Assembly (NCBI GenBank): GCA_035485275.1
Contig: DATHOE010000034.1
Coordinates: 93,677-157,676, forward strand
DNA length: 64,000 nt
Direction of reading: 5' to 3'
From: a bacterium
GTDB lineage: Bacteria > Oederibacteriota > JAJYGY01 > DAIDJD01
Positions 37,431 to 62,883 of this stretch are shown here, piece by piece. Below the pieces are notes generated by a model. The model did not search any database and had not been told where the DNA came from. It saw only the letters and a list, made by a program, of their open reading frames with translations. Position 1 is the stretch's first letter; the number at the start of each line of letters is the position of its first letter. The position numbers were made by a program, and so were the translations under genes.

Positions 37431-38549
37431 ATGGCCATGGCCAGCGAGGTTCATAAACGGCGTTTTTTGACCTTGGACGGATTACGCGGGCTAGGCGCGC
37501 TACTCATCATGGTCTTCCATTTTGGTTCGTACGGAATTTCTCCGGTGCCCATGTTCTGCAAGGGCTACCTCGCGGTCGATCTTTTTTTCATTTTAAGTGG
37601 AGTGGTGCTCGCTGAGGCCTATTCGGCACGCCTGGCCGCGGGTTTGTCCCTGGCGGAGTTCCTGAAAATACGCTGGATTCGTCTCTATCCCTTTTACGCG
37701 CTGGCCTTGGTTTCTTCCGTAGCGATGCTTTTATTGTACTTTTTGGCAAAATCCTCAAACATGGATTTTATCCACTGGGCGCCAACAAGGTTTGTGGCCG
37801 GGTTCACTCCCGGCAGCTTTTTGGTCGCGTTTTCTTTCTCGGCCTTCATGGTCCCGGCCCCCATCGCCGGAGCGCTATTTCCATTCGTGGTACAGGCCTG
37901 GTCCTTGTTTTACGAGCTCTTGGTGAACCTGGGATGGGCGCTGACGCGGGCAGGGCTCGGGCGCTTTCGGCTTGGGATCGTAATAGCCATCGCGGCCTGC
38001 GGATTGTGCATGTTCGGACACAACGATGGCATCGCCGCCGGGGGTGAATGGACTTGCTCGGACCTCGCGACGGGATGCTGCCGCGTCTCTTTTTCCTTCG
38101 GCGTCGGACTCATGATTCACGACATCGACAAGGCCCGCGTGCCCCGGGTGAACCCTTGGATCATTTTTTTGGTCGTCGTAGCCTTGCTTGCTGCGAATCC
38201 GCCGGAGGCCTGGTGGGGTCTGTTCGATTTGGCGGCCGTATGGGTCTTTTTGCCGGCCTGCGTTCTGCTCGCTACGGTGAGTGAGCCCAGGCACGCCTGG
38301 GAGGCACAGACGTTCACGTTCATGGGCAACGCCAGTTACGGTATTTATATGATCCACGGTCGTTTTCTTTCGGTCCTACATTGGGCCGTGGATAGGTTCG
38401 CCCTCAGCCCTTATCTTGGCGAGGTGTTGGTGACGGTGGGGGTTGTATTTTTGGCGCACTGGCTGGAGCGGGTTTGGGATAGGCCTGCCCGTTCGTGGCT
38501 GGCCGGGTTTATCGGCGGGGAATCCGCACCCAAACTAAAAAAACGCTGA
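37431..38549 (+). CDS. acyltransferase family 3 membrane O-acyltransferase
   Basis: FLTLDGLRGLGALLIMVFHF...DLFFILSGVVLAEAY signature. Confidence 0.8.
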   Translation: MAMASEVHKRRFLTLDGLRGLGALLIMVFHFGSYGISPVPMFCKGYLAVDLFFILSGVVLAEAYSARLAAGLSLAEFLKIRWIRLYPFYALALVSSVAMLLLYFLAKSSNMDFIHWAPTRFVAGFTPGSFLVAFSFSAFMVPAPIAGALFPFVVQAWSLFYELLVNLGWALTRAGLGRFRLGIVIAIAACGLCMFGHNDGIAAGGEWTCSDLATGCCRVSFSFGVGLMIHDIDKARVPRVNPWIIFLVVVALLAANPPEAWWGLFDLAAVWVFLPACVLLATVSEPRHAWEAQTFTFMGNASYGIYMIHGRFLSVLHWAVDRFALSPYLGEVLVTVGVVFLAHWLERVWDRPARSWLAGFIGGESAPKLKKR

Positions 38550-38740
38550 TTTTACGGATTTTTTGGGGAGCCTTGGTTGGGAACTCCGCCTCTAATGGGT
38601 TACAATTGACCTTGGAACCGGCTTGGCCGACAGCGGACGACGCGAATAGCGGCATTAAGATCGTCGACACCGTTTGGTGCCGTGGCTGAAGACCGGTACT
38701 GGCCCCAGGATCGTTTACAGTGTATTATAGCCGGTAATCT

Positions 38741-40330: not shown

Positions 40331-40370
40331 GCCTGCTCAGGAATGCCTTCGTGAGACGCTGAGCTGCGGG

Positions 40371-41108
40371 TCAGCCTTTGGAAGTCGCCCCGCCTATTGG
40401 TTTGGATGCCTGTGCGACAACATTGCAATAGGAGTCGTATTTTTTTGGAAGCATGCGGTCCAGCGCTAGGCCGCTCAGATTCATCGATGGAATAAATAGG
40501 TAAGGCGTCCCGAAACGGAGATACCGCACAAGGCACATGGTCAGGTGTTGCCAGGACGCGAGAAAACTCGATGTGGTCTTGTCGGTGACGACGTTATCGA
40601 AGCCGTGTTTCCGCAACAATAACGCGAAGCCGGCCGCCGTATATCGGGCAAGGTCCTCCGGGCCGTCCTCTTCCCAAGTGAACGGGGTTACGATGAGGAG
40701 GCGTCCGCCCGGCCTAAGCACCCTTTTGAATTCGTCGAGCACTTGGTCTATATTTGGAACGTACATCATCACCTCGGTACTGAACACTCCGTCAAAGCTT
40801 CCGTCCGCGAAGGGCAGGGTTTTACCGTCGTAGAAGGCGTCAATGTCGCTGCGTTTGTCGTAGAAATCCATCTGCAATTCCAGGCCTACGTAGGTCCTCG
40901 CGTTATTGAACAAGGATCGATAGGGTTTGGTTCCACAGCCGAAGTCCAAAATATCGCCGTGAAAGCCCTCGGCGCGAGCGGCGACGGCGCGGTAGATCCC
41001 GCGGTGGATGATGTAGCTGGAGTTCACGAAAATTCCAACGGGTCCTGGCAGAAACTTGTGCTTTTGCACCACCGTTTCTCTGAATTTTTTCCTGAGCTTT
41101 TCTAGCAT
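40371..41108 (-). CDS. class I SAM-dependent methyltransferase
   Basis: ILDFGCGTKPY (motif I), FDGVFSTEVMMYVPN, LRPGGRLLI; start taken at internal ATG (residue 46 of ORF to 41243), uncertain. Confidence 0.65.
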   Translation of the reverse strand: MLEKLRKKFRETVVQKHKFLPGPVGIFVNSSYIIHRGIYRAVAARAEGFHGDILDFGCGTKPYRSLFNNARTYVGLELQMDFYDKRSDIDAFYDGKTLPFADGSFDGVFSTEVMMYVPNIDQVLDEFKRVLRPGGRLLIVTPFTWEEDGPEDLARYTAAGFALLLRKHGFDNVVTDKTTSSFLASWQHLTMCLVRYLRFGTPYLFIPSMNLSGLALDRMLPKKYDSYCNVVAQASKPIGGATSKG

Positions 41109-41223
41109 TAGGCCCCTCAAAAAACGGCGACGGCTTATATCCAAGGTCCATTTTGGAGGGCCGTTCCTAAAACGCCGGAACAGGACCGGGCCCTGGATCG
41201 GTCCGAACTCCAGAAACCGAGCT

Positions 41224-42186
41224 TCATCTCCAGCCTCGGACAAAGGCCCGCCGGACGTAGCCCTTGAAATCGCCGAGGGTCCACGATCCGACGAGCATGC
41301 GCGGGAGCTCCCAAGGGGAGGTGGATCTCCGTACCGCGCAGGAACGGGTGGTGAAGGCGAAGCGATAGCCGGAATCCTTCAGGGCCAAAATGCTGGCCTG
41401 GTCGTATTGCCCGTTGGGATAGGCGAAGTAGGGGCTCTCCAGGCCCCAGCGCCTCAAATCCAGGTAGGATCCCCGTACTTCGGACCTTTGTGACGCGGGA
41501 GGGCGGCCCGCGAGGATGAAGTGACTCCTTGTGTGTCCGCCGACGGACATCCCGGGAGTGGAGGCCCAGGAACGCACTTCTCCCAGGGACATTATCCGGT
41601 GGCTGGGCCGGGGCCTGGCGGGTACTCCGGCCTTCCCCGATATCTCGCGAAGGGCCCGGGCCTGCGCGCTGGGGGACATCGCTTGAAGGAGGTCCCAAAG
41701 GCGGTCGAAGGTGTCCATCCAGTTTCGGCCCGGTTCCGGGAGGAGGCGGATCCCGCGGTACACAAGGGGAGCCCGGCGGCCGGCGTTCCCGTCTGAGAGG
41801 ATCCGTTCCAGGGCGTCCCAAAGGAATTCCCGTTTCCGGTTCACGTACCCGGTGGCCAGAAAAAGGAGGGCGGGTAGCCTCATTTGGTGCAAGACCGGGA
41901 GTGCCCCGGTCACGTTATCCGAGTATCCGTCGTCGAAGGTCAACATGATCGCCGGACGCCGGCGGGGCTTCATGATGTCCTCGGCTCCTATGACGTCGAA
42001 ATTCTCCGCCAGCCAAACCAACTGGCGCCGGAAGGCTTCCGGCGTCACTGTGATCCCGAAGGGATCCGTTTCGAAGTTCGCGATTCGGTGGTAGCCGAGC
42101 ACCAGGAGGGGAGCTTCCCAGAGGTTCCTGAGGGCGTTCACCGGAAAATGCGAGACACCTTTGATGCGATCCATGGACCAAGACAT
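41224..42186 (-). CDS. polysaccharide deacetylase (NodB-like)
   Basis: AIMLTFDDGYSDN motif and NodB-like organisation. Confidence 0.75.
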   Translation of the reverse strand: MSWSMDRIKGVSHFPVNALRNLWEAPLLVLGYHRIANFETDPFGITVTPEAFRRQLVWLAENFDVIGAEDIMKPRRRPAIMLTFDDGYSDNVTGALPVLHQMRLPALLFLATGYVNRKREFLWDALERILSDGNAGRRAPLVYRGIRLLPEPGRNWMDTFDRLWDLLQAMSPSAQARALREISGKAGVPARPRPSHRIMSLGEVRSWASTPGMSVGGHTRSHFILAGRPPASQRSEVRGSYLDLRRWGLESPYFAYPNGQYDQASILALKDSGYRFAFTTRSCAVRRSTSPWELPRMLVGSWTLGDFKGYVRRAFVRGWR

Positions 42187-42227
42187 GCGTTTCCCCTGTC
42201 CCCTTGCGGACGTTCCTCCGGCCCGCG

Positions 42228-43619
42228 TCAGCGTGCGGGCCCGGGGGCCAAGATGGCGTCGTAGATCGCGTCCACGCGCCGGACGTAGTCGCCGGATGAC
42301 TGCACGGTCGGCATAGCGGCGCCGTAACGGGTCAAGGCTCCCGGCTCGCTGCGCATCCGATCTATCGCGCGCGCGAGGGAGGCGACTGAACCGATCTCGA
42401 ACACTCGCCCGAAGCGGTCCTCAATGTCATAGTCCCTCAGGGTCGGGATATCGGGCGCTATAACCGGGCGTTTGTGGGCGAAGGACTCGAGCAGGGTCAG
42501 CGGCAGGTTCTCCATGCACTGCGAAGGAATCAGTGTGGCATCGATCCTGGAGAAAAAGGATGCGATGTCGCGGTGCGGAAGCCACCCCAGCCATTCGACG
42601 GTGTGCATGCCCACGTGCCCGGGATAGCGGGCGCGTAGTTCCTTAGCGAAATCGCCGTCCAGGCTGCCCGCGACCACGAGGCGCACCGGCGACGAGACCA
42701 CGCCGCTTTCAAGCGCCTGAAAGACCTCCCCCAAACCCTTGTCCGGCGCGATCCTTCCAATATAGCCGAAGGTGACTTCTCCCGACGCTTTGCATTTTGC
42801 GCCGGCATCCTGCACCGGATCGTAGTACCAGGGGATGACGTGGACCATCTTCCTATCTATGCCGAACTGGGAGAAGAACTCCGCGCCGAATGAATTGGCG
42901 ACGATCAGGGCCCCCAAAGCGGGGAGGGCGAGCCTGGCCCTCTCCAGATTCAGGGAAACCCTCCGCTTCAGGCCGACACGGAGGATTCCGCGCTCGCTGA
43001 GGGACCGGTCGAAGGGGAAGAGGCTCGTCGCCTCCAGGAGTCGTTCGCCGAAAAGCGTCGAAACGAGCATCTCGTTGAGCCTTCCGGCCGTTCGCCTGCC
43101 GGCCCAGACGCAGCGGGCGCATTTGTCGAGTTCCGCGGTCCCGTCGCAGAGCCCGCCTTCGCCCTTCACGAGATGCGACCGCAGGCAACCCAGGCCCCAG
43201 TCGTGGGCGGAGAAGACGGCCGGGATAGAGGAACGCCTCGCGGCCTCGAAGATCCACCACATTCCCGCGCCATGGTGCATATGGACGATGTCCGGCTTGA
43301 TTCTGCCGAGCAGTTCGCGGCCGATCCCAACCGCCTCCTCCCACCTCGCCTCGTTCAGCACTTGGCCCGAGTAGAGGTGGTTCAGATTCACGACATGGTA
43401 AGGGAGGCCCTGGAAGGTGTATTCCAGGCGCGAAACGATTTTAGGGGCGGCGGGGGCGGGCAGTGGGCCCTCCCATCCGTCCTGCCCCGGCCAGGTCAAT
43501 AGCTCCACGTCCCGGCCATGGTTTTCGCGCAGGGCCCGGGCTTGGCGGAAGACGTTGTTGTTGTATCCGACCGGATCGGGCCAGGCGTATTTGCTGACGA
43601 AAAGGATACGACCTGGCAT
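42228..43619 (-). CDS. glycosyltransferase family 4 (GT-B)
   Basis: MPGRILFVSKYAWPDP N-terminus, GT-B organisation. Confidence 0.8.
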   Translation of the reverse strand: MPGRILFVSKYAWPDPVGYNNNVFRQARALRENHGRDVELLTWPGQDGWEGPLPAPAAPKIVSRLEYTFQGLPYHVVNLNHLYSGQVLNEARWEEAVGIGRELLGRIKPDIVHMHHGAGMWWIFEAARRSSIPAVFSAHDWGLGCLRSHLVKGEGGLCDGTAELDKCARCVWAGRRTAGRLNEMLVSTLFGERLLEATSLFPFDRSLSERGILRVGLKRRVSLNLERARLALPALGALIVANSFGAEFFSQFGIDRKMVHVIPWYYDPVQDAGAKCKASGEVTFGYIGRIAPDKGLGEVFQALESGVVSSPVRLVVAGSLDGDFAKELRARYPGHVGMHTVEWLGWLPHRDIASFFSRIDATLIPSQCMENLPLTLLESFAHKRPVIAPDIPTLRDYDIEDRFGRVFEIGSVASLARAIDRMRSEPGALTRYGAAMPTVQSSGDYVRRVDAIYDAILAPGPAR

Positions 43620-43683
43620 CAGAGGCGTCCATTCAGCGGAGCTTCTTAAAGACCGGCCGAAGGCGGCGCCGGCAGACTCCTGT

Positions 43684-44796
43684 CTACTTAAAGAACTCGT
43701 TCACCGCCTGAATCACCCGCTCCTGGTCTTCCGCTTTGAGGTCCGCGTAGAAGGGCAGGCTCAGGATCTCCTCATATAGCCCCTCGGTGACCGGCAGAGG
43801 GATGCTGTAGGGGGCGAATTGTGGCTGAAGGTGGTTGGGGATGTAATTGACGCCGCTGTCCACTCCCCGTTCCCGCAGCCAGGCCATCAGGCCGGCCCTG
43901 CGGCCGCGCAGAACCCTGACGACATAAGTGAAAGGGAAGACATCATCTATAGGCCATTTCAACAGACGGAGTCCCGTCAGGGGCCGGAAGGCCTGGTTGT
44001 ACCGGGCGAGGATTTCGAGTTTCCGCGCCTTGAATTGTTCCATGCGGTCCAGTTGGACCAGGCCAATGGCCGCGCTGATGTTGCTCATATGGTAGCGCCA
44101 TCCGACCGTCTCCACCTGGTATCTCCACTCGTCCTGGGCCCCCATGCGCTGCCAGCGGTCCCGGCTGATTCCCAACACCCTTTTTTTGCGGGCCAATGCG
44201 GCCACCGCGGGGTCCGAGGTGACGATCGCCCCGCCCTCACCGCAGGTGATGTTCTTGATCGGGTCGAAGCTGAAGCAAGTGATCTGCCCGAACGAGCCGA
44301 TACGACGGCCGCGGTGGGTGGATCCGAAGGCATGGGCGGCGTCCTCAACCAGAACGGTTCCGTGCCGCTCGGACAGCTCCAGGAGCCGGTCCATGTCCGC
44401 GGGGATGCCGCAGTAGTGGACCGGGACGATGGCACGGGTGCGGGCGGTCACCTTGCGGGCGACATCTCCGACGTCCAGATTCAGGGTTTCCGGTTCCACC
44501 TCGCAAAAGACCGGGGTGGCTCCGGCCGCACGGATGGCCTGGATCGTGGCGCAAAAAGTGAGGGAGGGTACGATCACCTCCGCGCCGGCCGTGATGCCGG
44601 CGGACTCCAAGGCCAGATGCAGTGCGGCGGTGCCTGAAGAGACCGCCACGGTTTCGCGTCCGTCGAACAAGCTCCGCAGGCGCTCCTCGAAATTCAGCAC
44701 CTGTTTGCCGAAGCCCAGCCATCCGCTGGAAAGTACTTCGGCGACGGCCCCGGCCTCAAGCGCGCCGGTGCTTGGTTTGGAAACTGGAATCGTCAT
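43684..44796 (-). CDS. DegT/DnrJ/EryC1/StrS-family PLP-dependent sugar aminotransferase
   Basis: PLP-lysine context SFDPIKNITCGEGGAI, about 370 aa. Confidence 0.85.
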   Translation of the reverse strand: MTIPVSKPSTGALEAGAVAEVLSSGWLGFGKQVLNFEERLRSLFDGRETVAVSSGTAALHLALESAGITAGAEVIVPSLTFCATIQAIRAAGATPVFCEVEPETLNLDVGDVARKVTARTRAIVPVHYCGIPADMDRLLELSERHGTVLVEDAAHAFGSTHRGRRIGSFGQITCFSFDPIKNITCGEGGAIVTSDPAVAALARKKRVLGISRDRWQRMGAQDEWRYQVETVGWRYHMSNISAAIGLVQLDRMEQFKARKLEILARYNQAFRPLTGLRLLKWPIDDVFPFTYVVRVLRGRRAGLMAWLRERGVDSGVNYIPNHLQPQFAPYSIPLPVTEGLYEEILSLPFYADLKAEDQERVIQAVNEFFK

Positions 44797-45824
44797 CCCT
44801 TACGCCTCTTGATATCCATGGATGCCGCAGCCTGAAAACCGCTCGCCATCCAGTTCTGGGCCAAAATCTCCGCCAGGTCCGGCGAGAAGTGGCGGCGCCA
44901 CAGCAGGACGGAGGCCTCCGCCGGCCTCGCCAGCCAGGAGAGCCTGGCGCCCCATTTTTCCGCGAAACTGCCGTCCAAACCATAAAAGGCCGCCCTCAAT
45001 CCGTAGGTATAACGCAGCGCGCGCAGGTACGCCGAAACCCTGCTTTGGGCGGCCAGCCACTTGGTGAATGCCTCCCGTTCCGAGCCGGGCCGAAGAAGGT
45101 CCTGCGCACAGCCGTGCCGCTCGCGGAGCAGATAGACGACGGTCACCAGCACGTCCTCAAATCCTTGCTGATCCCCGCTTTCGGCCCGCGATGTCTGGCC
45201 GGGGTGCTTCCTTAGCATGATCAGGGGCCGTTTCATGCAGGCCAAGCGCCCCACGGCCGCAAGGTTCAGCCAGAGATCCTTGTCCTGGACGCTCAAAAGC
45301 GAGAGCTTGTATCCGCCTAGAGCCAAAGCCTTTTCCCGGGAAAAGACCACGGATGAATGCGGAATAGTGCGGCGCATTTCCAGCATGTCCGCCATCAGGG
45401 CATCGTGCTGCGACGCATAACGATGCCGCCGGACCTCCCTGCCTTCAGCGTCAATTTCCACGCAGCTCGTGCCCAGCAACACGAGGTCCGGTTCGCGAAG
45501 CAGCTGGTCGATTTGCTCGCTTAATTTTTCCGGAAGCCAGAGGTCGTCCTGGTCGATGCGTGCGATCCACGAGCCCTTGGCGAGCCGCAAACCCCGGTTG
45601 AGCGTATCGGATAGGCCGCTGTGTTTTTTGGCGACGACCTTTATGCGGCGGTCTTTTTTGGCGAGGGATCGGGCCAGGGGGAGCGAACCGTCCGTGGAGG
45701 CGTCGTCCAGGATGATGAGTTCCAGGTTTGCATGGGTTTGGGCGAGCACGCTGGAGACTGCCGTGGCTAGCCAACGGGACCCATTGTAGACTGGCAACAG
45801 CACCGACACCAAAGGAGGTTTCAA
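44793..45824 (-). CDS. glycosyltransferase family 2
   Basis: VSVLLPVYNGSRWL ... LIILDDASTDGS ... RIDQDD GT-A motifs. Confidence 0.8.
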   Translation of the reverse strand: MKPPLVSVLLPVYNGSRWLATAVSSVLAQTHANLELIILDDASTDGSLPLARSLAKKDRRIKVVAKKHSGLSDTLNRGLRLAKGSWIARIDQDDLWLPEKLSEQIDQLLREPDLVLLGTSCVEIDAEGREVRRHRYASQHDALMADMLEMRRTIPHSSVVFSREKALALGGYKLSLLSVQDKDLWLNLAAVGRLACMKRPLIMLRKHPGQTSRAESGDQQGFEDVLVTVVYLLRERHGCAQDLLRPGSEREAFTKWLAAQSRVSAYLRALRYTYGLRAAFYGLDGSFAEKWGARLSWLARPAEASVLLWRRHFSPDLAEILAQNWMASGFQAAASMDIKRRKG

Positions 45825-46169
45825 AATTCAACCCGCTCCGAACATGCCCCGATCCGGGGCGTAAGGGTTTCCTTGGCCCGGCGTCATTGCCGTATTTTGG
45901 CCCAAATGGCGGGCAAAGGGGCAGGCCCCCTCTTGCCTTAATCGCCCAAGCCAAGCCCGGCCGAACACAAGGTGCCGCTATTCTTGGCTGAACCGGCCTA
46001 GCTTAACACGTGGCCCAGTCCGAATCCTCTAGTTTTTTTCGTGGATTCGGCGAACCGTTGCAGGTCCCAACTACGTTGCATCCGAACTAGGATACGCATA
46101 TTGAGATTGAAATCCCGGACTGCGCCTGAGATAAAAGCCGCAAGCCCCGCGCACGGAGGACCACCGATC

Positions 46170-47045
46170 ATGCCGAAACTTAAATTCGTCCGGGAGTTCC
46201 TTAAGAAAATCTCACCAGTCTGGAGCTTCTTTCGATTCCTCAAACACAGGGTTTTCCTGCCGCTAGTGCAGCGCAGCACTTTGAACGTCCTCGAAACGTT
46301 TCCGGTCTGTGCGCCGGCTGGGGCGGGGGGCTACGGGCCGAGGGCCGAGATCACGATCCGAGGCATTAACCAGCTTCTTCCGGGCTTATATTCGTTAGCG
46401 ATTTTGAACGGGGCAAAAGGGATAGAGCCGCGGTCTGCGGAAGGATGGCCGTTTCCTGAGGGAGATTTGGAAACCATAAAGGCTTTGGAGGCCTGCCTGG
46501 CGAAATTTGGAACAAGAAAGGATCCGCCGTACCTCAGGCTTTACGGGCACATTTTTAAAGACAGGGAACAAATAGAAACGGTTCTGGAAATCGGGATCGG
46601 ATCGAATAACCCCAGCATCGTCTCAAATAACCTGGGGAGCGCGGCGCCCGGCTCCACGCTTCGTGGCCTCAGGGATTTCCTTGGCGGCGCCCGGATTTAT
46701 GGGGTGGATGTGGATACCGACATTCTATTCACAGAGGACCGCATTCAAACCTATTTTGTAGACCAGACGGATCGGGCCTCCCTGGAGGCTCTGGGCCGGG
46801 AGCTGCCTGACGCCTTTGACCTGATCATCGACGACGGACTACTTGCGCCTGTGGCGGATCTGCCAACATTGAATTTCTCACTCGCGCGCCTCCGGATTGG
46901 GGGATGGCTGGTGGTGGAGGAAATTCCTGGTCGGGCCCTTGTTTTCTGGAAGGTCGTAGCCACGATGCTGGCTTTGTCGTTTAAAGCGACCATTCTCTCC
47001 AATGATGATGACAGTCTTATTTTTGTGGTCGAAAGAAAATACTAA
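46170..47045 (+). CDS. hypothetical protein, methyltransferase-like Rossmann fold (lower-GC gene)
   Basis: VLEIGIGSN ... RIYGVDVD ... LIIDDG pattern; ATG at 46170 (residue 44 of ORF 46041). Confidence 0.5.
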   Translation: MPKLKFVREFLKKISPVWSFFRFLKHRVFLPLVQRSTLNVLETFPVCAPAGAGGYGPRAEITIRGINQLLPGLYSLAILNGAKGIEPRSAEGWPFPEGDLETIKALEACLAKFGTRKDPPYLRLYGHIFKDREQIETVLEIGIGSNNPSIVSNNLGSAAPGSTLRGLRDFLGGARIYGVDVDTDILFTEDRIQTYFVDQTDRASLEALGRELPDAFDLIIDDGLLAPVADLPTLNFSLARLRIGGWLVVEEIPGRALVFWKVVATMLALSFKATILSNDDDSLIFVVERKY

Positions 47046-47108
47046 ATCAGGTATTGGGGCGGGGCCTGTTCCGCCAGGGGAGTCACCGTAAATGGCCCCG
47101 GTACCTTG

Positions 47109-48491
47109 TTAAGCCGGCCACCTTTTTGATCCACTCGAAGTCAAAATTTTCCAAATGAACGCGGTGAGTAAAAACAAAAAAAGAGGATAGTAAATACCTG
47201 AGCCATAGAAATATGGCACCGGAATACCAATCATCTCAATGCAAATAACACATATCGTAAAATAAAATTTGAGTCTCTTGTCGGAAAGGCTCAACATATT
47301 CTTCAATACCCACGGCAGCAACGCGATGACCCAGAACAGTCTGATCATCCAGGTGAACGGTGCGCAAAAAAGCGTGATGAGTATTCCGAAGTAATAGAAA
47401 GTCAATGTGGGATCCAGGAAATCCGGAGATGTTCCACGTGCGAAAAAAAAAGTCAGAGCCCACAATAGCAGCGGGGTGAAAATCATAATTAATAGTCTGG
47501 AGATATGTAAACGCGATGCCATTTCTCGGGTGCCTGATCCGTTTGAGTTCTGGTCCATGAGCCCGCTGTCGTCATATATAACTCCATCGATGGTGTTTAT
47601 GGAGTCGGGCCAAGCCCGGGAATATATTTGGATTTCCCTGGAGCTTAACGACTGATTTTCACTCCCCAATTCTTCCGATTGGAAAATACGGCCCAAACGA
47701 TGCATGAAATAATCTTGGTTTACCGAAATGCCGTCCAAAGCGAGGCTGCTTCCAAAAAGCACGGCTACACCTAACAGGAATCCAACTAAAGTTGGACGCC
47801 AGCGCGTTAAGAATATTCCGGGCATGAACAAAAGGGTGTCCAGTTTTAGGAAGGTGGCCACCGCAAGGCAGGCCCCTAATGCGCAATGAGCCCAATTTTC
47901 TTTGAATCGACAGGCCAGAAAAAAACCCATGGTAATGACAAAAAATGTAATTCCGTCGATATTTGCTGCTTCGATCTGGGAGACTGTGGGGTAAAACCAA
48001 AAAGCGGTACCCAATACCGCGAACATCGGAAACAAAAATATGTCCAGCCACACGACATAGGTTGCCGCCGCAATCGACGCGACAATGCATGAAAAAATTA
48101 AAAGCGTCCAAATCAACTTGGCGCGGGCATACCTAAAATAAGTGAAAGGAACAAACAGTCTTGCCGTCAATGGGGGCAATAAAAAACCGCTGTTGGCGAA
48201 CGAGCTATAATCCCAGGTGCGGATGTCTTTCGCCATATTGTTGTCATAGGGAGAATATCCATCCCTCACGGAGAATCCGGTGCTATAGAAATCAAAAAAA
48301 TCACCTTGTGGGCCATGGGCGACTAGATGGCAGGTCCAGCCGGAAATCCAGATAAGTCCGCTCAAAAAATAGAGCATCATTAAGATTTTAAGTTTTCGTG
48401 GCGCTCTTTCCACTGATACTCCCTGTCGCGTATGTTTTTCCTTCCTTAGACCTTGGACCCAGTGCCGGATGCTCGGGTTGGCGTCACGCAT
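47109..48491 (-). CDS. polytopic membrane protein (lower-GC), putative GT-C/DUF2029-like or polymerase
   Basis: 460 aa, many TM helices, Phe/Trp/Tyr-rich; visibly AT-richer than flanking genes; start uncertain. Confidence 0.5.
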   Translation of the reverse strand: MRDANPSIRHWVQGLRKEKHTRQGVSVERAPRKLKILMMLYFLSGLIWISGWTCHLVAHGPQGDFFDFYSTGFSVRDGYSPYDNNMAKDIRTWDYSSFANSGFLLPPLTARLFVPFTYFRYARAKLIWTLLIFSCIVASIAAATYVVWLDIFLFPMFAVLGTAFWFYPTVSQIEAANIDGITFFVITMGFFLACRFKENWAHCALGACLAVATFLKLDTLLFMPGIFLTRWRPTLVGFLLGVAVLFGSSLALDGISVNQDYFMHRLGRIFQSEELGSENQSLSSREIQIYSRAWPDSINTIDGVIYDDSGLMDQNSNGSGTREMASRLHISRLLIMIFTPLLLWALTFFFARGTSPDFLDPTLTFYYFGILITLFCAPFTWMIRLFWVIALLPWVLKNMLSLSDKRLKFYFTICVICIEMIGIPVPYFYGSGIYYPLFLFLLTAFIWKILTSSGSKRWPA

Positions 48492-48725
48492 ACTGTGTTC
48501 TAATTTTTTGATTTTGCGGATGCCTGAAAAACGAGGTGCCGGATTATAATTCCCGCTGCCATAAGAAGCAACGGGCCGGGGCGAAAGGCTGCGGAATGAT
48601 CCCCCGGGCTGGCGCCAATTGGATCGCGTTCCGAATGGATTTGACCCAGCATTTGCTATACACTTTGCGCTTTCAGGAGCCGGTCCGTTAGGGGGACTCG
48701 GCTTACCGTCTAGCCAGGTTGTCGC

Positions 48726-49484
48726 ATGAAGCTTTCAGTGGTCACTGTGGTCCGGAACGACCCGGCGGTGGCGTCCACGGTATCCAGCGTTTTGGCCCAG
48801 AAAGGCCTGGACGTGGAATGCGTCGTCATCGACGGCGCGAGTACGGACGGCACTTTGGCGGCCCTGAAACCCATGCGCCGGCGGATACGCCTTTTCAGCG
48901 AGCCTGACAGCGGCATCTACGACGCCATGAACAAGGGGCTGCATAGGGCGCGAGGTCGGGTGGTGGGCTTCCTGAACGCGGGGGACGTTTTTTTGGGGGA
49001 CCACAATTTGGCGGAGGTTTCCCGGGCTTTCAGCTCGGACAAGGGCCTGGGCGCCTGTTTTTCCGGGCTGGAAATCTCCGATCCCCAAGGGAAGCGGAAG
49101 CGCTGGTGGCCCGCCTCGGAGTACCAGCCCGGGGCCTTTGCCGCAGGGTGGATGCCCAGCCACCCGACTTTTTACGCCCTGCGCCGGCCCCTGCTCGATT
49201 TGGGCGGCTTTGACCTGCGTTACCGTCTGGCAGCGGATTACGACCTGATGCTCAGGGCCTTGGAACAGGCTCAGCTTCGTTCCGTGGCCCTGCCGCTTTG
49301 CCTGGTGCGCATGCGCAGCGGCGGCGCCAGCCAGGCTTCTCTGGGCGCCCTTTGGCGCCACAATAGGGAAGCCTGGTCCGCGGCCACCGCCGCGGGAACC
49401 GTGAGGTGCTCCTTTGGGCGCTTTTTGGCCCGCAAATGGAGCCATAAATGGCGCCAGGTCCTGGATGCGCGGTTTGCGCCCTGA
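48726..49484 (+). CDS. glycosyltransferase family 2
   Basis: LSVVTVVRNDP ... VVIDGASTDGT ... FLNAGD GT-A motifs. Confidence 0.8.
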   Translation: MKLSVVTVVRNDPAVASTVSSVLAQKGLDVECVVIDGASTDGTLAALKPMRRRIRLFSEPDSGIYDAMNKGLHRARGRVVGFLNAGDVFLGDHNLAEVSRAFSSDKGLGACFSGLEISDPQGKRKRWWPASEYQPGAFAAGWMPSHPTFYALRRPLLDLGGFDLRYRLAADYDLMLRALEQAQLRSVALPLCLVRMRSGGASQASLGALWRHNREAWSAATAAGTVRCSFGRFLARKWSHKWRQVLDARFAP

Positions 49485-49551
49485 CGGCGGAATCGCGTTT
49501 TTTGTCCAGTTAAGGCGGCCCTGACAGCCCGTTCAGAACTCAAGGGAAACC

Positions 49552-50607
<1,056 letters not shown>

Positions 50608-50608
50608 G

Positions 50609-52114
50609 GTGGCCCAGCAGGCCCCGGTCACTGGCATGCGCGGCGCGGCGGTCCAGGGCGCGTTCTGGAGCATCGCCTTGGCCGTCGGCAATAAGGCCGT
50701 GACCACAGTGGGGCAGGTCGCGCTGGCTTGGTACCTTTTCCCGCGGGACATGGGGATCGTCGCGATGGCGGCCTCGGTGGTGGCGCTGGCCACTTTCTTC
50801 ACGGCCAGCGGCATCGACGACCTGCTGGTGCAGCGCCACGACTCCTATGAGCAGGACGCAACCCAGGTATTTTGGCTGTCCCTTTGTTTCAATGTCGTCG
50901 CGATGGCGGTCGCCGTGGCCTTGATCCCCTTCGCGGTCCGGCATTTCGGGGACGGGCGGGTGGGCCGCCTGATGCTCATCCAGGCGGCGAGTTGGCCGGT
51001 CTCCACCGTCACGCTGGTGCTCCGCCCGCAATTGGCCAATGTCCTGCGCTTCAAGGCCATCGCCGCGATCCGGCTCGGGGAGGGCGTGGTATTCACCGGC
51101 TGCGCGGTTTTTCTGGCCGCCCAGGGTTGGGGGCCCTACGCGCTCGTGTGGCCGACCCTCTTCTCGGCGATCTTTTCCGCCGCGGCTTTTTGGTGCCTGG
51201 CGGACAGGCCGCCCATGGGCTGGCCCAAGCCGGTTTCCTGGCCGGCCTACATCACCCCCGGCCTTCTGTTGATGGTGGGCAACTTCGTGGGGGTGATGGC
51301 GATCCAGATGCCGAACTTCATCATCGGAAGCCTGATGGACGCCCGCGGGACCGGCCTCTACGCCTGGGGCTACCTGGTGGCATCCCAGGCGATCTTCTTG
51401 CTGGTCCTCAATCTCCGCGGTTTGTTCACGCCGTTGTTTTCAAAACTGAAATCCGAGCCGGAGCGCCTGGCCAAGGCCACCGCGCAGGCCGCGTACGCCA
51501 TCACCGCGGTGGTCGCCCCGATATGCGTCCTGCAGGCGTTTTTCGCCCGTCCCCTGATCGAGACTTTTTTTCCGGCGCGCTGGACGGACGCGGTGCTGGT
51601 GGTGTACTGGCTGAGCCTGGGCTTTTGCGCCCAGCCGGTCGCCTTGATCACGCAGGCCGCCCTGATCGCGAAGGCCAGGTTCGGCCTGGCCTTGAGGCTG
51701 GCCCTGCTGCAGGCCGTCCTGGGGGCCCTGGGGGTGGCCTGGGGATGCCTCAAGAGCGGCATCGAGGGCGCGGCCGTGGGCGCGGCGGTTAGCGCCGTCC
51801 TATGCCTCCCGCTCAACCTGTGGATACTGCGCGGCGAGGTGGGCTGTTCCTGGCTCCGCTTGTTGGACGCGCCCAAAGCCATCCTATTCGGCGCCCTGGC
51901 TTTCCTTCCGTCGTGGGGGATCTTTTGGGCCTTCGGCGGCGCCTACCATTGGTGGTCCAACGCGGCGGAGGGCGTCGCCTACTGCGCGGTCCTGGCCCTG
52001 GTCTACAGGCTTTTCGACCCAGGCATGTTCGATGAACTCTCCGGATTGAGGTCCCTGATGCGGGGCGCCCCGGGGAAGCTTCCAGACCTTTCAAGGGGGG
52101 AGCAGTGCCCCTGA
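50609..52114 (+). CDS. Wzx-like flippase / polysaccharide biosynthesis protein (MOP family), second copy
   Basis: About 500 aa, 12-14 TM helices; GTG start 2 nt after gmd stop. Confidence 0.7.
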   Translation: MAQQAPVTGMRGAAVQGAFWSIALAVGNKAVTTVGQVALAWYLFPRDMGIVAMAASVVALATFFTASGIDDLLVQRHDSYEQDATQVFWLSLCFNVVAMAVAVALIPFAVRHFGDGRVGRLMLIQAASWPVSTVTLVLRPQLANVLRFKAIAAIRLGEGVVFTGCAVFLAAQGWGPYALVWPTLFSAIFSAAAFWCLADRPPMGWPKPVSWPAYITPGLLLMVGNFVGVMAIQMPNFIIGSLMDARGTGLYAWGYLVASQAIFLLVLNLRGLFTPLFSKLKSEPERLAKATAQAAYAITAVVAPICVLQAFFARPLIETFFPARWTDAVLVVYWLSLGFCAQPVALITQAALIAKARFGLALRLALLQAVLGALGVAWGCLKSGIEGAAVGAAVSAVLCLPLNLWILRGEVGCSWLRLLDAPKAILFGALAFLPSWGIFWAFGGAYHWWSNAAEGVAYCAVLALVYRLFDPGMFDELSGLRSLMRGAPGKLPDLSRGEQCP

Positions 52115-53370
52115 GAATATCCGCGGCCCTGCTGTACGCGGTCGCTTTCATGGCCCAATACCATTTTTTGATGGTCCCCCATTTCGGCTATTGGGGCTTC
52201 GGGGACCTCAGCGGCGTCCTGGAGTGCCTTTATCTTCTGCCTTTGATGGTGGCGCCGGCCCTGTGCATGCCCGAGCGGATCGACCGCCCGTCGGCGCTGT
52301 TCGCGTTTTTGAACTACACGATCATCTATGTGCCCGTCTGCGTGCTGCTGTTCCATTCCACGCTGACGTCGATCAGCCTCGCGGACCAATGGGCGATATT
52401 GATCGCCTTGGCCGCCAGCACTGCCTTGCTCTTTGAGGTCCCGCGTTTGCCCTCCATCCCCCTGCGCCGGGGCAGGCTGAGCGGGGGCGCGATTCTGGCT
52501 GCCTGCTGGTGCGTGCTGGGCGCGGTGGTGCTGATGACCCTCGCCGTCAACAGGATCGGGTTCTTCGGGTTCAAGGGGATCGGAGCCGCCAGGGCCGCCT
52601 ACACGGAAAATATCCGCCCTCTGGGCCCCTATTTCGGGTACTTCGACGCCTGGTGCGGCCTGGCGATCATCCCTTTCCTGTTCGTGGTCTGTTTAAGGAA
52701 AGACCGCCGCTGGGGCTGGCTGCTCCTGAGCGCGGTGTGCGTGCTGCTGTTCATGACCTCGGGGCGCAAGACCGCCCTGCTCACGCCCTTGGCGGTTTTG
52801 GGCAGCTATTTCGGGGTGAAGAAGGGTCTCAGGACCCCGGCGCTTTTGTTCGTGTTTTCGGGCCTCTTGCTGGTCCCCTTCGTCTTCGGGGCCCTCGGGC
52901 TCTCGGGCCCCCGCGACCTATACTACAATGTCATCAATTTCAGGATCTTCGCGGTGCCACAGATCCTTATCCCGCAGTATTACAGCTATTACCTGGCCAA
53001 CGGATTCACCCACTTCCGCAGCATCAATGTGGTCAACCGGTTTTTCTTTGGAGGGGCGGCGTTCGAGCAGCCCTGGGCCGCCATCGCCCGCTTCTATTAC
53101 AAGAAAAAATTCACGGCCGATGCCGTGTTCTATGCGACCGACGGCCTGGCGGCCTTGGGCATCGTGGGGATCCCCTGCGTGACCGCGGCTTGCGTTTTGG
53201 TTTTTTGGATCTTTGATTCCCTGCAAAAGGGGCATTCCGCGCTGTTGATGCTCCCCTGCATGATGCCCTTCCTTTTTTCGTTGTTCAACAATTCGCTGTT
53301 TACTACGATGCTCACCGGCGGTGGCTTCGTGCTGATGGCGCTGTTCTATCTGCTTCCGGATACCGCGTGA
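52105..53370 (+). CDS. polytopic membrane protein, putative Wzy-type polymerase
   Basis: 421 aa, about 10 TM helices, follows Wzx-like gene with overlapping start. Confidence 0.5.
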   Translation: MPLRISAALLYAVAFMAQYHFLMVPHFGYWGFGDLSGVLECLYLLPLMVAPALCMPERIDRPSALFAFLNYTIIYVPVCVLLFHSTLTSISLADQWAILIALAASTALLFEVPRLPSIPLRRGRLSGGAILAACWCVLGAVVLMTLAVNRIGFFGFKGIGAARAAYTENIRPLGPYFGYFDAWCGLAIIPFLFVVCLRKDRRWGWLLLSAVCVLLFMTSGRKTALLTPLAVLGSYFGVKKGLRTPALLFVFSGLLLVPFVFGALGLSGPRDLYYNVINFRIFAVPQILIPQYYSYYLANGFTHFRSINVVNRFFFGGAAFEQPWAAIARFYYKKKFTADAVFYATDGLAALGIVGIPCVTAACVLVFWIFDSLQKGHSALLMLPCMMPFLFSLFNNSLFTTMLTGGGFVLMALFYLLPDTA

Positions 53371-53410
53371 AAGCCGCGCCCATCCGTTGTTTTAGGAGTC
53401 CGGGATTCCA

Positions 53411-53983
53411 GTGAAGTCGGCCGTACGGAAATGGTGGGGACGTTGCGCCGCTTTGGCGGTGTGTCTCCTTTTGATGCAAGTGGCCTGGTTCGAGTATGTG
53501 TTCAGTTGCCCGGCCCCCGCGCTCCAGGCGGACATGCTGGCGGTCTATGGCGGGGATCCCCCGCGCTACGCCCTGGGCTGGGCCGTCGAGCGGCAGGGCC
53601 GCTTCAATTTTCTGGTCTTTTCCGACGCCCACGCCGATTTTTTGGCCCAGATGAAGGGCCAATATGGTCCGCCGCGCGCCGCGCGCTTGCTGCTCGAACC
53701 GCGGGCCCGGTCCACCGCCCAGAACGCGCGTTATGTGGCCGTGCTCATCCGCGACCATGGGTGCAGGAGCGTGCTGGTCATCACGTCCTGGTGGCACCTG
53801 CCCAGGGCTCTCTTTTTGACCCACCTTGCGTTGCTGGGCAGCGGCGTGGAAATTTCCGGCCTGGGCTCGGAGCTGCGTCCCTCGGTGGCGTGGAACGATC
53901 GCCGCGTGTGGGAGGAGCTGATCCGGTTCTGGGGCTCGTTGCTGACGTTCACGTCGGACACCCACAACACCTCTTTTCTTTAG
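53411..53983 (+). CDS. DUF218 (YdcF/ElyC/SanA-like) family protein
   Basis: STAQNARYVAVLIRDHGCRSVLVITSWWHLPRA pattern typical of DUF218. Confidence 0.6.
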   Translation: MKSAVRKWWGRCAALAVCLLLMQVAWFEYVFSCPAPALQADMLAVYGGDPPRYALGWAVERQGRFNFLVFSDAHADFLAQMKGQYGPPRAARLLLEPRARSTAQNARYVAVLIRDHGCRSVLVITSWWHLPRALFLTHLALLGSGVEISGLGSELRPSVAWNDRRVWEELIRFWGSLLTFTSDTHNTSFL

Positions 53984-54000
53984 CGTTCCAGGGACAGGGC

Positions 54001-55917
54001 GTGGCCAAAGTGCGTATCTCATTTTTGGGAAAAGGCGGCGCGTTTTGCGCGCTCCTGGTTTTGGCGGCCTGTGTTCAGGCCCACGATTATTTTGTCGCCC
54101 CCTCTGGGATGGACAGCAACCCCGGCACCCTGGACCAGCCCTTCCGGACCCTTGCCTGGGCGGTCCCCTATGTCCGCGCGGGGGATACCCTGTATCTTCG
54201 CGCCGGGGTGTACCGTCAGGCCGTCAGCGTCGAACACGGCGGCACCGCGTCGGCGCCGGCCGTGTTCAGCGCCTACGGGGCGGAAGCCGCGGTTTTAGCG
54301 GGTAGCGATCCCCTTGTCGGAACCTGGAAAAAATACGACGGGAAGATATGGTGCCTGGACGGCGTGTCACGCACCTCGGACCTTTTCGTGGACGGCCAGG
54401 AGATGTCCATAGCCCGATGGCCGACTGCGGGTCCCGGTGCGCCCATGGACCAGGGATGGGCCCTCACCGGCGCCGGAACCAACGCGGCGGTCGTCGCAGA
54501 TCCCCATTTACCGGACCTTCCCCTGGTCGGGGCCCGGGTGCACATCGTCCCCGGCTTGGCCTGGGTCAGCTTCACCCGGTCGATCAAGGAATACGGGCGG
54601 GGAAGGCTCACCCTGTCGAGCCCGGTTTGCGGCGCGACGCCCGCCTATTGCCCCAGGCCCGGAAACCGCTATTTCCTTTACGGGAGCCTGGCCCTCTTGG
54701 GCGGCCCCGGCGAGTGGTACCAGGACCCGGCGACACTGCGGATCTACCTCTGGGCCCCGGACGGCCGCGACCCCGCCGACCACCTGGTTGAGGTGGCGCG
54801 GCGCAAGGCGGTCATCCGGGACGACGGCTATTCCCACGTCGAATTCCGGAATCTGCACACCTTCAGCGGGGGCATCAAGATCAGCCGCTGTGTGGGATGC
54901 AGGGTGATCGGGGTGGACCAGCGTTACGTGCAGCGCTATACGGAGGTGGAGGGATATTCCGCCGAAAATCCCACGAATTCGCTCTACGCCGGAAGCGACT
55001 GCGAATGGGCGGACGGATCCATTGAGGGAAGCAGCGGCGACGGTCTGGCGGTTTCCGGCACGCACCAGCACGTGCACGACATGCTCATCCACGACGTGTG
55101 CCGGGAAGCCAGCTACTCGGGGGCCCTGGCCCTGCTCGGAAGCGGGCAGGTCATCGAGAACAACACCCTCTATGACAGCGGTCGCTATCTCATCAACCTG
55201 GGGACAACCCACGGCGGACGCATCGCCCACAACGACCTGTACAATTCCGGCTTGCTGACGAACGACTCGGGGGCCATCTATTCATATGACACCGACGGCG
55301 CCGGCATGGTCATTGCCTTCAACGACGTGCACCATGCGCCCGGCACCCGCGGTGTCGGGATCTACCTCGACAACGGCGACTCCGACTACGTGGTGCTTCA
55401 CAATCTTGTCCATGACTGCGCCTGGGCCGGGGTCGAATTGAACCTGCCGAGCAACTGCAATGTCGTCTGCAACAACACGCTTTGGAATTGCAAGCATTGG
55501 GTTTGGGCCGACGGCAACATCCATTACCACTCGATGACCGGCACGGTGCTGGCGAACAATGTGGTCAACGGGACCGAATTGCTGGTGAGGGACCGTTTGG
55601 CGCCCGTCCAGGTGCGCAACGCCGCCCTGCTCCAGCCGCCGCAGCTCTTCGCGCCGGGCGGCTTCTCACTGGCCGCGGGCTCCTGGGCCATCGCTTCGGG
55701 GGTTTCGATCCCGCCCTATACCGACGGCGGATGCGGCGCGGCCCCGGACCTGGGGGCCATCAATTACGGCTGCGGCCAGGATTGGAGCGCGGGTTGCGCC
55801 CGCAGGCCGGCGGCCTTCCCGTATCCGGCGCTGGAAATGCTCGGCATGGGTCCGTCCCCGGGCCCGGACCCCCGGACGGAGCACCCTTCGGCCGGCGGAG
55901 CTGCGCCGTGGAACTAG
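54001..55917 (+). CDS. secreted right-handed parallel beta-helix repeat protein (pectate-lyase-like fold; candidate polysaccharide lyase/hydrolase)
   Basis: Signal peptide ISFLGKGGAFCALLVLAACVQA; repetitive NN/ND-rich beta-helix pattern (NNTLYDSG, AHNDLYNSG, AFNDVHHAPG, LHNLVHDC, CNNTLWNC); GTG start 54001 or 54010; upstream part of ORF 53431 is an off-frame artefact. Confidence 0.65.
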   Translation: MAKVRISFLGKGGAFCALLVLAACVQAHDYFVAPSGMDSNPGTLDQPFRTLAWAVPYVRAGDTLYLRAGVYRQAVSVEHGGTASAPAVFSAYGAEAAVLAGSDPLVGTWKKYDGKIWCLDGVSRTSDLFVDGQEMSIARWPTAGPGAPMDQGWALTGAGTNAAVVADPHLPDLPLVGARVHIVPGLAWVSFTRSIKEYGRGRLTLSSPVCGATPAYCPRPGNRYFLYGSLALLGGPGEWYQDPATLRIYLWAPDGRDPADHLVEVARRKAVIRDDGYSHVEFRNLHTFSGGIKISRCVGCRVIGVDQRYVQRYTEVEGYSAENPTNSLYAGSDCEWADGSIEGSSGDGLAVSGTHQHVHDMLIHDVCREASYSGALALLGSGQVIENNTLYDSGRYLINLGTTHGGRIAHNDLYNSGLLTNDSGAIYSYDTDGAGMVIAFNDVHHAPGTRGVGIYLDNGDSDYVVLHNLVHDCAWAGVELNLPSNCNVVCNNTLWNCKHWVWADGNIHYHSMTGTVLANNVVNGTELLVRDRLAPVQVRNAALLQPPQLFAPGGFSLAAGSWAIASGVSIPPYTDGGCGAAPDLGAINYGCGQDWSAGCARRPAAFPYPALEMLGMGPSPGPDPRTEHPSAGGAAPWN

Positions 55918-55940
55918 GGCGTCCGGCAAGGCAGGGGCGG

Positions 55941-57149: not shown

Positions 57150-57185
57150 TGTCATTCGGTCAATTAGCGGGCGTCGGGTTGAAAC

Positions 57186-60498: not shown

Positions 60499-60578
60499 CT
60501 TTGGGCCGTTTTCGCCGTATCCTTAAGGTGGGTGAAGAAAAGACTTTGGACGTCGGGCAAGGCCTTTGGGGGAAAACC

Positions 60579-62846: not shown

Positions 62847-62883
62847 CCCCCGGCCGTCCCTGAAGCTCAATGAAAGGCCATCC

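Follow-up and report, generated by a model that had tools for sequence, protein, structure and literature searches.

The 64-kb stretch of bacterial DNA analysed here, referred to below as the window, carries a surface-polysaccharide locus in which two adjacent genes stand between two divergent operons. One encodes a methyltransferase-like protein and the other a multi-pass membrane protein that resembles glycosyltransferase family 87 (GT87). The two genes are convergent, on the forward and reverse strands, respectively, with 63 nt between their stop codons, and each is divergent from its outer neighbour, a gene for a family 2 glycosyltransferase (GT2); given these orientations, the pair fills what would otherwise be the shared divergent promoter region of two operons. 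An earlier note on this DNA had described positions 45900-48700 as an AT-richer insert, a horizontally acquired cassette of both genes that modifies the glycan. The analysis presented here shows that the GC dip is real but is essentially one gene, that of the GT87-like membrane protein, while the methyltransferase-like gene is only mildly, or borderline, atypical in composition. The account that we favour, with modest confidence, is one of a single gene and no cassette: the GT87-like gene would have been acquired horizontally from a clearly lower-GC lineage, next to a gene of separate history whose product is probably dead or repurposed.

Composition and borders of the low-GC segment

The two open reading frames (ORFs) listed in the earlier note, 46170..47045 and 47109..48491, are correct as ORFs. 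The second one spans 460 codons when read from ATG 48491, and a shorter start at GTG 48413 yields 434 residues. The shorter start is probably the true one, because a GGGAG Shine-Dalgarno-like motif lies just upstream of it, an independent gene call (P0001) agrees with it, and relatives of the protein are 427-436 residues long. The methyltransferase-like gene starts at ATG 46170, giving 291 residues, as in its database entry (P0007), and its relatives have 288-295 residues.

When GC content is computed in 1-kb steps, it falls to a minimum of 0.452 at 47001-48000, compared with 0.61-0.65 in the flanks and 0.68-0.75 at the ends of the window. The lowest-GC stretch of 1305 nt in the entire 64 kb is exactly the GT87-like gene (0.452), and the next non-overlapping one is the gene for a Wzy-like protein (0.530). 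At 200-nt resolution, a sharp trough of 0.375-0.50 is confined to 47.0-48.4 kb, with the methyltransferase-like gene at 0.505-0.595 and the borders at 0.53-0.60. The AT-richness reported for 45900-48700 is thus borne out as a dip, but not as a uniform one, since its trough is the GT87-like gene only.

Because AT-rich codons specify many of the residues that abound in membrane proteins, GC content at third codon positions (GC3) was compared with the value expected from each gene's own amino acids when codons are chosen as in the rest of the locus (34 locus genes in all). The GT87-like gene has a GC3 of 0.525, compared with the expected 0.769 (binomial z -12.8), which places it -4.3 standard deviations (SD) out on the between-gene spread of the 34 genes. 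For the methyltransferase-like gene, the respective values are 0.621 and 0.753 (z -5.4; -2.3 SD), a deviation equal to that of the lowest other locus gene, an acyltransferase gene at 36094..37170. GC3 also sets the two focal genes apart from one another (z 2.6). Sliding-window GC and codon usage, the checks proposed for the insert, therefore single out the membrane-protein gene and leave its neighbour within the range of other locus genes. The low GC of the GT87-like gene extends over all three codon positions (GC1 0.41, GC2 0.42, GC3 0.52).

The borders of the pair are long, as had been observed: at 345 and 312 nt (the latter becoming 234 nt with the 460-residue start), they exceed the 90th percentile of gaps in the window (238 nt; median, 37.5 nt). 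They are nevertheless ordinary divergent promoter regions. Other divergent gaps in the window measure 222, 260 and 705 nt, and the GC content of both borders is typical of the window's intergenic DNA. Folding of the convergent spacer between the two stop codons was no better than that of shuffled sequences (z -0.01 and 0.92), and a terminator was not demonstrated there; a promoter and terminator scan gave nothing usefully above the shuffled expectation. An Rfam scan that included both borders found no family, its only match being a chance hit to a long non-coding RNA (E 0.26).

The GT87-like protein and the origin of its gene

The membrane protein matches Pfam family PF09594 (GT87/DUF2029) with 42.5 bits, well over the gathering score of 25 (E 8.6e-11), and it is named 'glycosyltransferase family 87 protein' at NCBI. 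An exhaustive HMMER search over 1.84 billion representatives returned 247 relatives at E <= 1e-3, 8 of them at E <= 1e-30; with so few relatives, the protein belongs to a small and divergent branch of GT87. A 51-member family profile had a single match in the PDB, PimE (9dm5, E 1.4e-16), and in that profile alignment the phosphate-binding K195 of PimE falls on the family-invariant K190. The AlphaFold (AF2) model of the protein (predicted local distance difference test, pLDDT, 88.5; predicted template modelling score, pTM, 0.91) was likewise closest to PimE in a Foldseek search (TM-scores 0.61/0.68), followed by ALG3, GPI mannosyltransferase I, ArnT, ALG6 and OST/PglB. All of these take their sugars from lipid-phosphate-linked donors and are either GT-C enzymes or closely akin to them in structure. 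Sequence and predicted structure place the membrane protein among the GT-C-fold enzymes, as a relative of PimE from mycobacteria. To our knowledge, mycobacteria are the only organisms in which members of the GT87 family have been biochemically characterized.

The protein has at least 9 hydrophobic segments and a basic N terminus, with the first transmembrane helix at approximately residues 10-33. Right after this helix, a near-invariant Q36-x-D38 motif opens a helix at residues 37-50; this motif and the invariant W67-D68 and K190 are all present. D58, the catalytic base of PimE, is on the periplasmic side, where the first juxtamembrane helix has its tip (PMC12041525). D38 also follows the first transmembrane helix, and this position in the sequence makes it a candidate counterpart of D58. 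At the 28 near-invariant positions of the family, the protein deviates twice (26/28 kept), which is ordinary for the family, and it looks like a functional, non-decaying enzyme. The window contains another GT87-like gene, at 34740..35894; the idea that the two are recent paralogs was rejected (BLASTP E 0.44).

The case for an outside origin comes from the comparison with relatives. The five nearest ones share 45-50% identity with the GT87-like protein, and the two of them for which DNA was available (P0004 and P0006, in loci L006-L008) are encoded on high-GC contigs by genes with GC 0.68-0.71, GC1 0.66-0.67 and GC3 0.91-0.96. The shift is also seen in the protein itself. Residues with AT-rich codons (Phe, Tyr, Met, Ile, Asn and Lys; FYMINK) make up 0.31 of the GT87-like sequence and those with GC-rich codons (Gly, Ala, Arg and Pro; GARP) 0.23, compared with 0.17-0.23 and 0.30-0.34, respectively, in the five relatives, all of which have a GC-type amino-acid composition. 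In a neighbour-joining tree, these five high-GC relatives form a monophyletic group with 100% bootstraps, and the window copy lies outside it on a long branch; the next sequence in the tree, P0090, also has an AT-type composition. Since close relatives are high-GC, the low GC is neither a trait of the family nor forced by membrane topology, and since the shift reaches first codon positions and amino acids, it points to long evolution in a lower-GC background before arrival. The suggestion that the membrane-protein gene is compositionally foreign thus holds for its synonymous sites and its amino-acid make-up alike, and, judged by this composition, the source of the gene was probably a lower-GC organism. 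Polysaccharide clusters are known to contain stretches of low GC, membrane processing genes in particular, and the usual interpretation is that these came from a lower-GC donor (PMC3715488).

Several observations weigh against such an acquisition. No donor was identified, and the nearest known relatives are themselves high-GC. The argument for an insertion is compositional, no genome without the gene having been found among the collections searched. The flanking genes are as orphan (best matches of 41-48%) as the focal ones (42-50%), so that by similarity the focal genes look no more foreign than their neighbours. The window as a whole contains no tRNA gene, its scanned genes include no member of the integrase or transposase families, comparison of the borders revealed no target-site duplication or convincing flanking repeats, and the searches with the GT87-like gene returned no plasmid or viral relatives; a phage origin of the gene was rejected on the last of these grounds.

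The neighbourhoods of the relatives deserve a separate mention. Three of the five nearest ones share a conserved context, with chemotaxis and response-regulator genes, that is not a polysaccharide locus. A divergent gene for a 165-residue DUF4760-like protein is present on all contigs compared (L006-L008 and the JGI 3300050821 contig with P0003), and genes for CheX/CheD and response regulators are found near the GT87 relatives on the longer contigs. In their high-GC lineage, the relatives may therefore have a housekeeping function that has nothing to do with polysaccharide loci.

The methyltransferase-like neighbour and the competing explanations

With the single sequence as query, the methyltransferase-like protein matched only FtsJ in Pfam, and below threshold. 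It has 83 homologs, many of them with a PF13578 (Methyltransf_24) domain and several fused to tetratricopeptide repeats (TPR). A 40-member family profile matched MycE (3ssm, E 2.8e-15) and entry 8ia9 (E 7e-14), whose molecule is deposited as demethylmacrocin O-methyltransferase and whose title reads SpnK; MycE and SpnK were also the top Foldseek matches (E 7.5e-10) of the AlphaFold model (pLDDT 89.4). Both are Mg-dependent O-methyltransferases of 6-deoxyhexoses. An intact homolog, P0035, is encoded inside an operon with the order GT2-GT1-methyltransferase-GT4-Wzx. This operon, together with the GDP-mannose 4,6-dehydratase encoded in the window locus, makes sugar O-methylation of a glycan the natural role of the family, which itself appears to be uncharacterized.

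The likeness to the macrolide and spinosyn enzymes MycE and SpnK (3ssm, 8ia9/8iaa) covers the S-adenosylmethionine (SAM) motif E-x-G-x-G and the DD and E-D motifs of the metal site, and the 6-deoxyhexose chemistry of those enzymes has its counterpart in that implied by the dehydratase of the locus. Yet the alignment is limited to the C-terminal catalytic domain (~120-230 residues), preceded by a different N-terminal region, and the family is found in polysaccharide operons, on viral contigs and in TPR fusions rather than in polyketide clusters.

Within the family, the SAM motif (E140-x-G142-x-G144) is invariant. The ungapped motif FDLIIDDGLH...N...GGWLVVEDI contains His225, Asn230 and Asp251 in 39/39 homologs, and these positions are occupied by Leu, Asp and Glu in no sequence but the window protein; it reads DDGLL where the homologs read DDGLH (H225L), carries D251E, and retains D222 and E250. 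Among 80 relatives on viral contigs, the His is present in 76 and the Glu-Asp pair in all 80, while position 230 is variable, so that N230D carries less weight. The 3ssm chain includes a 20-residue tag, and its alignment positions 295, 298 and 324 correspond to MycE Asp275, His278 and Asp304, which are three of the four listed conserved active-site residues of this enzyme class (PMC9275233). Asp275 and Asp304 are metal ligands. MycE holds the sugar by means of the metal, while the proton is removed by a residue close by (PMC4426599). At the positions of His278 and Asp304, the window protein carries Leu and Glu, respectively. The proton-abstracting base was reportedly identified as His278 itself by Akey et al. 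in 2011. MycE Glu303 is a further metal ligand. The Glu at position 251 of the window protein might still bind metal.

The changes are not limited to the active site. The protein deviates at 9/51 near-invariant positions, whereas the other members do so at 0.36 positions on average and 6 at most, and it lies farther from the family outgroup than any ingroup sequence (p-distance 0.709 compared with 0.644 ± 0.010), which indicates that it evolves faster than its relatives. The ORF remains intact and of normal length. Relaxed or altered constraint is the most economical reading of this pattern, and the enzyme is probably inactive or repurposed; against this it has to be said that inactivity is predicted from residues. 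The earlier proposal that the insert modifies the glycan is therefore sound in that both families act on sugars, but doubtful as regards methylation, with the active-site His lost and the metal-ligand Asp changed.

The methyltransferase family is also found outside polysaccharide operons. Viral contigs of IMG/VR contain 156 matching stretches (L133-L212), including some in giant-virus bins, and TPR fusions are frequent in cellular genomes (P0011, P0013, P0014, P0018, P0021 and P0056).

If the two genes had arrived jointly, as a cassette whose products glycosylate and methylate the glycan, one would understand why they are adjacent, both below the locus mean GC3, both of sugar-related families, and why, with a long border on each side, they jointly take up the gap between two divergent operons. 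A weak direct repeat of 26 nt (73% identity) is even present in both borders, at 45841-45866 and 48563-48588, but such a match is within chance for the search. The compositions of the two genes differ (GC3 0.62 compared with 0.52), the methyltransferase-like gene being within the range of other locus genes, and the spacer between them is host-like (GC 0.635). The genes are convergent, and their homologs never co-occur: tblastn searches with both proteins against 129 other loci found 0 loci with both, and neither focal gene was present in any of the ~120 loci that have a relative of one of the GT2 genes beside the pair. The genomic contexts of the methyltransferase relatives (P0008, P0035) and of the GT87 relatives (P0002-P0006) are unrelated, and the methyltransferase family is represented on viral contigs while the GT87 family is not. 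The mobile character that a cassette would imply was not found either, with neither an integrase or transposase, a tRNA, convincing flanking repeats nor a plasmid match to point to. We regard joint arrival as unlikely, though still the strongest of the competing explanations, and consider that the focal genes represent separate acquisitions or histories.

Two candidate signs of a unit were also followed and rejected. A convergent gene for a 339-residue protein next to the GT87 relative on the P0003 contig suggested a conserved GT87-methyltransferase pair, and no co-occurrence was seen in any locus with DNA. A 40-nt inverted repeat that brackets the pair is not a set of element termini but reflects GT2 homology, since both of its arms fall within the parts of the two GT2 genes that encode the N termini. 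As regards synteny, close relatives of the flanking genes were absent from the genome, metagenome and protein collections, with best non-self identities of 35-48%: the 343-residue GT2 protein had only generic GT2 matches (<=35%) among genome contigs and a best non-self match of 41% among proteins, and the best match of the 252-residue GT2 protein among metagenomes was 48%.

A second alternative, which we consider somewhat less probable still, is that no transfer took place and that the low GC of the GT87-like gene arose or was maintained in situ, for instance because selection favoured rare codons and weak expression for a toxic multi-pass enzyme, or because mutation was AT-biased while selection was relaxed. 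The gene would then be comparable to wzx and wzy, which in many polysaccharide clusters are often the lowest-GC genes, a tendency that 'needs explanation' (PMC3715488). In the window, too, other membrane genes are AT-richer, namely the Wzy-like gene (0.537), acyltransferase genes (0.55-0.57) and the second GT87 gene (0.555), and no mobility signature was found in the border comparison and the tRNA scan. However, the two sequenced relatives have the same family and topology in high-GC hosts, so that membrane function needs no low GC, and both flippase genes of this locus have a GC3 of 0.83-0.88. The low GC1 (0.41 compared with 0.66-0.67 in relatives) and the amino-acid shift speak for long AT-rich evolution beyond codon choice, and the 26 family-conserved residues that are kept show that the gene is not decaying.

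Lastly, a metagenome assembly chimera, in which a lower-GC fragment was wrongly joined into a high-GC contig, might be suspected from the abrupt change in composition at the ends of the GT87-like gene in a metagenome-assembled contig, but it is very improbable, because a Logan contig (run SRR7093796) matches window 36170..48987, 12,818 nt that include both junctions, with 100% identity, an ENA contig of 268.5 kb (ERZ27253678 k141_388256) and a JGI contig of 297.8 kb encode the same proteins (NCBI HTB22803 and HTB22804), and the low-GC segment is one intact gene neatly placed between intact neighbours; these Logan, ENA and JGI assemblies may share the same reads. All other contigs with the locus are from the same strain; the JGI contig was considered as a second strain and rejected as such, its TatC difference being only the Met/Val convention at a GTG start.

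The surface-polysaccharide locus and a proposed function

The window has a mean GC of 0.629 and a tiered composition. Both ends (1..15456 and 59764..64000) consist of housekeeping-type genes with GC ~0.65-0.75 and GC3 ~0.91, whereas the polysaccharide locus (15544..59600, ~44 kb) has a GC3 of 0.767 ± 0.054 and forms a compositional island. Its left edge lies just after tatC and its right edge between an Acyl_transf_3 gene and the DUF374 gene. The flanks of the low-GC segment are thus already atypical for the genome. Encoded in the locus are Wza, Wzc, two MOP/Wzx flippases, a Wzy-like protein, a WecA/MraY-type phosphoglycosyltransferase, a carbamoyltransferase, four Acyl_transf_3 proteins, >10 glycosyltransferases, a GDP-mannose 4,6-dehydratase and a DegT aminotransferase, and the locus is a mosaic of Wzx/Wzy type with lower GC than the core genome. 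The 343-residue GT2 gene is the first of a leftward operon that continues with genes for the DegT aminotransferase, a GT4 glycosyltransferase, a polysaccharide deacetylase and a methyltransferase; on the other side, the genes at 48726..52114 have the composition of the host locus, and their products are possible partners of the GT-C enzyme (Table 1).

Table 1. Features of the window around the focal gene pair and at the window ends
Feature	Position	Strand	Characteristics
Left-end housekeeping-type genes	1..15456		Fatty-acid and biotin genes, BacA, alternative-complex-III-like set, TatC
Left-flank GT2 glycosyltransferase, 343 aa	44793..45824	-	Pfam PF00535, E 1.7e-29; GC3 0.751, z -1.0; composition of the host locus
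Left border	45825..46169		345 nt, divergent intergenic, GT2 (-) / methyltransferase-like (+); GC 0.580
Methyltransferase-like gene, 291 aa	46170..47045	+	Class I SAM-methyltransferase fold, MycE/SpnK type (predicted); degenerate active site
Convergent spacer	47046..47108		63 nt; GC 0.635, host-like
GT87-like GT-C membrane glycosyltransferase (predicted), 434 aa	47109..48413	-	Pfam GT87, PimE profile match, structural model; GC 0.452
Right border	48414..48725		312 nt, divergent intergenic, GT87-like (-) / GT2 (+); GC 0.545; 234 nt with the 460-aa start
Right-flank GT2 glycosyltransferase, 252 aa	48726..49484	+	WcaE-like; GC3 0.785
GDP-mannose 4,6-dehydratase, 351 aa	49552..50607	+	gmd TIGR01472, 545 bits, above cutoff; GC3 0.811
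MOP/Wzx-family flippase, 501 aa	50609..52114	+	Pfam/NCBIfam matches; GC3 0.878
Right-end housekeeping-type genes	59764..64000		DUF374, nucleotidyltransferase

GT-C enzymes are known as periplasmic modifiers of glycans after polymerization, and some act in three-component modification systems (PMC11127046). By analogy, the most likely function of the GT87-like enzyme would be the periplasmic addition of a sugar, taken from a lipid-phosphate-sugar donor, to the glycan. Its gene sits with its own upstream region between the two divergent operons. The N terminus of the protein would be cytoplasmic, Asp38, with which the first periplasmic juxtamembrane helix begins, would be the catalytic base, and Lys190 would bind the phosphate of a polyprenyl-phosphate-sugar donor, as in PimE. 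Asp38 might then deprotonate an acceptor hydroxyl on the undecaprenyl-diphosphate-linked repeat unit or on the growing polymer, and one sugar could be transferred at the periplasmic face, where it would form a side branch or a terminal residue and change the surface antigen in the manner of Gtr-type systems.

Some features of the window do not fit this scheme well. No GtrB/Ppm1-like synthase was recognized in the window (one may be encoded elsewhere in the genome), and no GtrA-like/SMR flippase was found among the window genes scanned. The three GT2 proteins of the window have no transmembrane helices, and their best NCBIfam matches are EpsE, TuaG and WcaE. The acceptor may also be something other than a polysaccharide, such as a glycolipid or a protein, given that three of the nearest relatives are found outside polysaccharide loci. 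The 343-residue GT2 protein does have a marginal ArnC match (E 3e-4). The GT-C enzyme might have partners in the 252-residue GT2 protein and the second MOP flippase (50609..52114), with the reservation that this flippase may simply be Wzx.

A bolder version of the scheme is conceivable, if rather improbable. The enzyme would be a stand-alone 'serotype-converting' GT-C module, recently captured from a distant low-GC lineage, which draws on the housekeeping pool of polyprenyl-phosphate-sugar and needs no dedicated synthase or flippase. The small, uncharacterized GT87 subfamily of 247 representatives would then modify surface polysaccharides outside Actinobacteria, and the neighbour would be a retained pseudo-methyltransferase, for example a sugar- or SAM-binding partner or a regulator.

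PimE, the polyprenyl-phosphate-mannose-dependent alpha-1,2-mannosyltransferase of GT87 (9dm5/9dm7), shares with the window protein the multi-pass GT-C architecture and, in the profile alignment, the Lys K195/K190, and the near-invariant Asp after the first transmembrane helix may correspond to its D58. In the structural alignment, however, the identity between them is only 13-15%; the high-GC host, a metagenome-assembled genome, is not shown to be actinobacterial, nothing points to the phosphatidylinositol mannoside glycolipid pathway, and the gene lies in a Wzx/Wzy-type locus. The Gtr-type GtrA/GtrB/GtrC systems and the GT136 systems of Citrobacter likewise feature a GT-C enzyme encoded by a stand-alone, atypical gene at a surface-polysaccharide locus, and the window enzyme is, like them, expected to act after export with a lipid-phosphate-sugar donor (PMC11127046). 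Yet no GtrB-like synthase or GtrA/SMR flippase was recognized nearby, the gene is not phage-associated, and the enzyme is GT87-like, neither of the GtrC type nor GT136; to see Gtr-style partners in the flippase and the GT2 protein encoded 0.3-2 kb away is speculation. Clusters for O antigen and capsule, such as the Salmonella rfb cluster with its wzx, wzy and glycosyltransferase genes, show the same nested GC tiers below the average of the genome, lowest in integral-membrane, serotype-specific genes (PMC3715488). They differ from the present case in that its background is a genome of ~70% GC and its outlier a GT-C gene rather than wzx or wzy, with two flippase genes among the higher-GC genes of the locus. 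The pattern is thus a familiar one, formed by a divergent member of the GT87/GT-C enzymes and a degenerate member of the sugar O-methyltransferases, and neither is a new kind of system.

Horizontally acquired low-GC genes that modify the product of polysaccharide loci are a route by which antigens and phage receptors diversify, and the window offers a clean and quantified case in an uncultured soil bacterium of ~70% GC. The presence of a GT87-type GT-C enzyme in a Wzx/Wzy-type locus suggests a role of such enzymes in periplasmic glycan decoration. The high-GC relatives indicate that protein function does not impose low GC, a point relevant to the old problem of AT-rich processing genes in such clusters. 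A small caution against annotating function by family membership alone comes from the degenerate methyltransferase.

Other parts of the locus call for brief comment. The two MOP/Wzx flippase genes (24098..25603 and 50609..52114; GC3 0.83 and 0.88) in one locus could mean either that two polysaccharide pathways are fused here or that one flippase exports the lipid-phosphate-sugar donor for two GT-C enzymes. Directly after the second flippase gene, at 52105..53370, a 421-residue protein is encoded that has ~8 predicted transmembrane helices and no Pfam match, which makes it a candidate second polymerase or ligase-like protein. A second low-GC sub-block at 34740..41243 (GC 0.54-0.60, GC3 0.65-0.72, z -3 to -6) contains genes for the other GT87-like GT-C protein (384 residues), two Acyl_transf_3 proteins, the WecA/MraY-type phosphoglycosyltransferase and a Methyltransf_11 protein; in composition it is similar to the methyltransferase-like gene. 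The Wzy-like gene (27979..29415; a weak PF14296 match, below threshold) is the second-lowest in GC (0.537), and since its GC3 of 0.73 is near the locus norm, its low GC stems mostly from amino-acid composition, unlike that of the GT87-like gene. The genes for the DegT aminotransferase (43684..44796) and the GDP-mannose 4,6-dehydratase belong to the two opposite operons that are parted by the focal pair; together, these enzymes could make a GDP-4-amino-4,6-dideoxyhexose, for example perosamine. Outside the polysaccharide locus, the longest intergenic region of the window (6179..6883, 705 nt, GC 0.589) is again a divergent one, between bacA and the alternative-complex-III-like operon.

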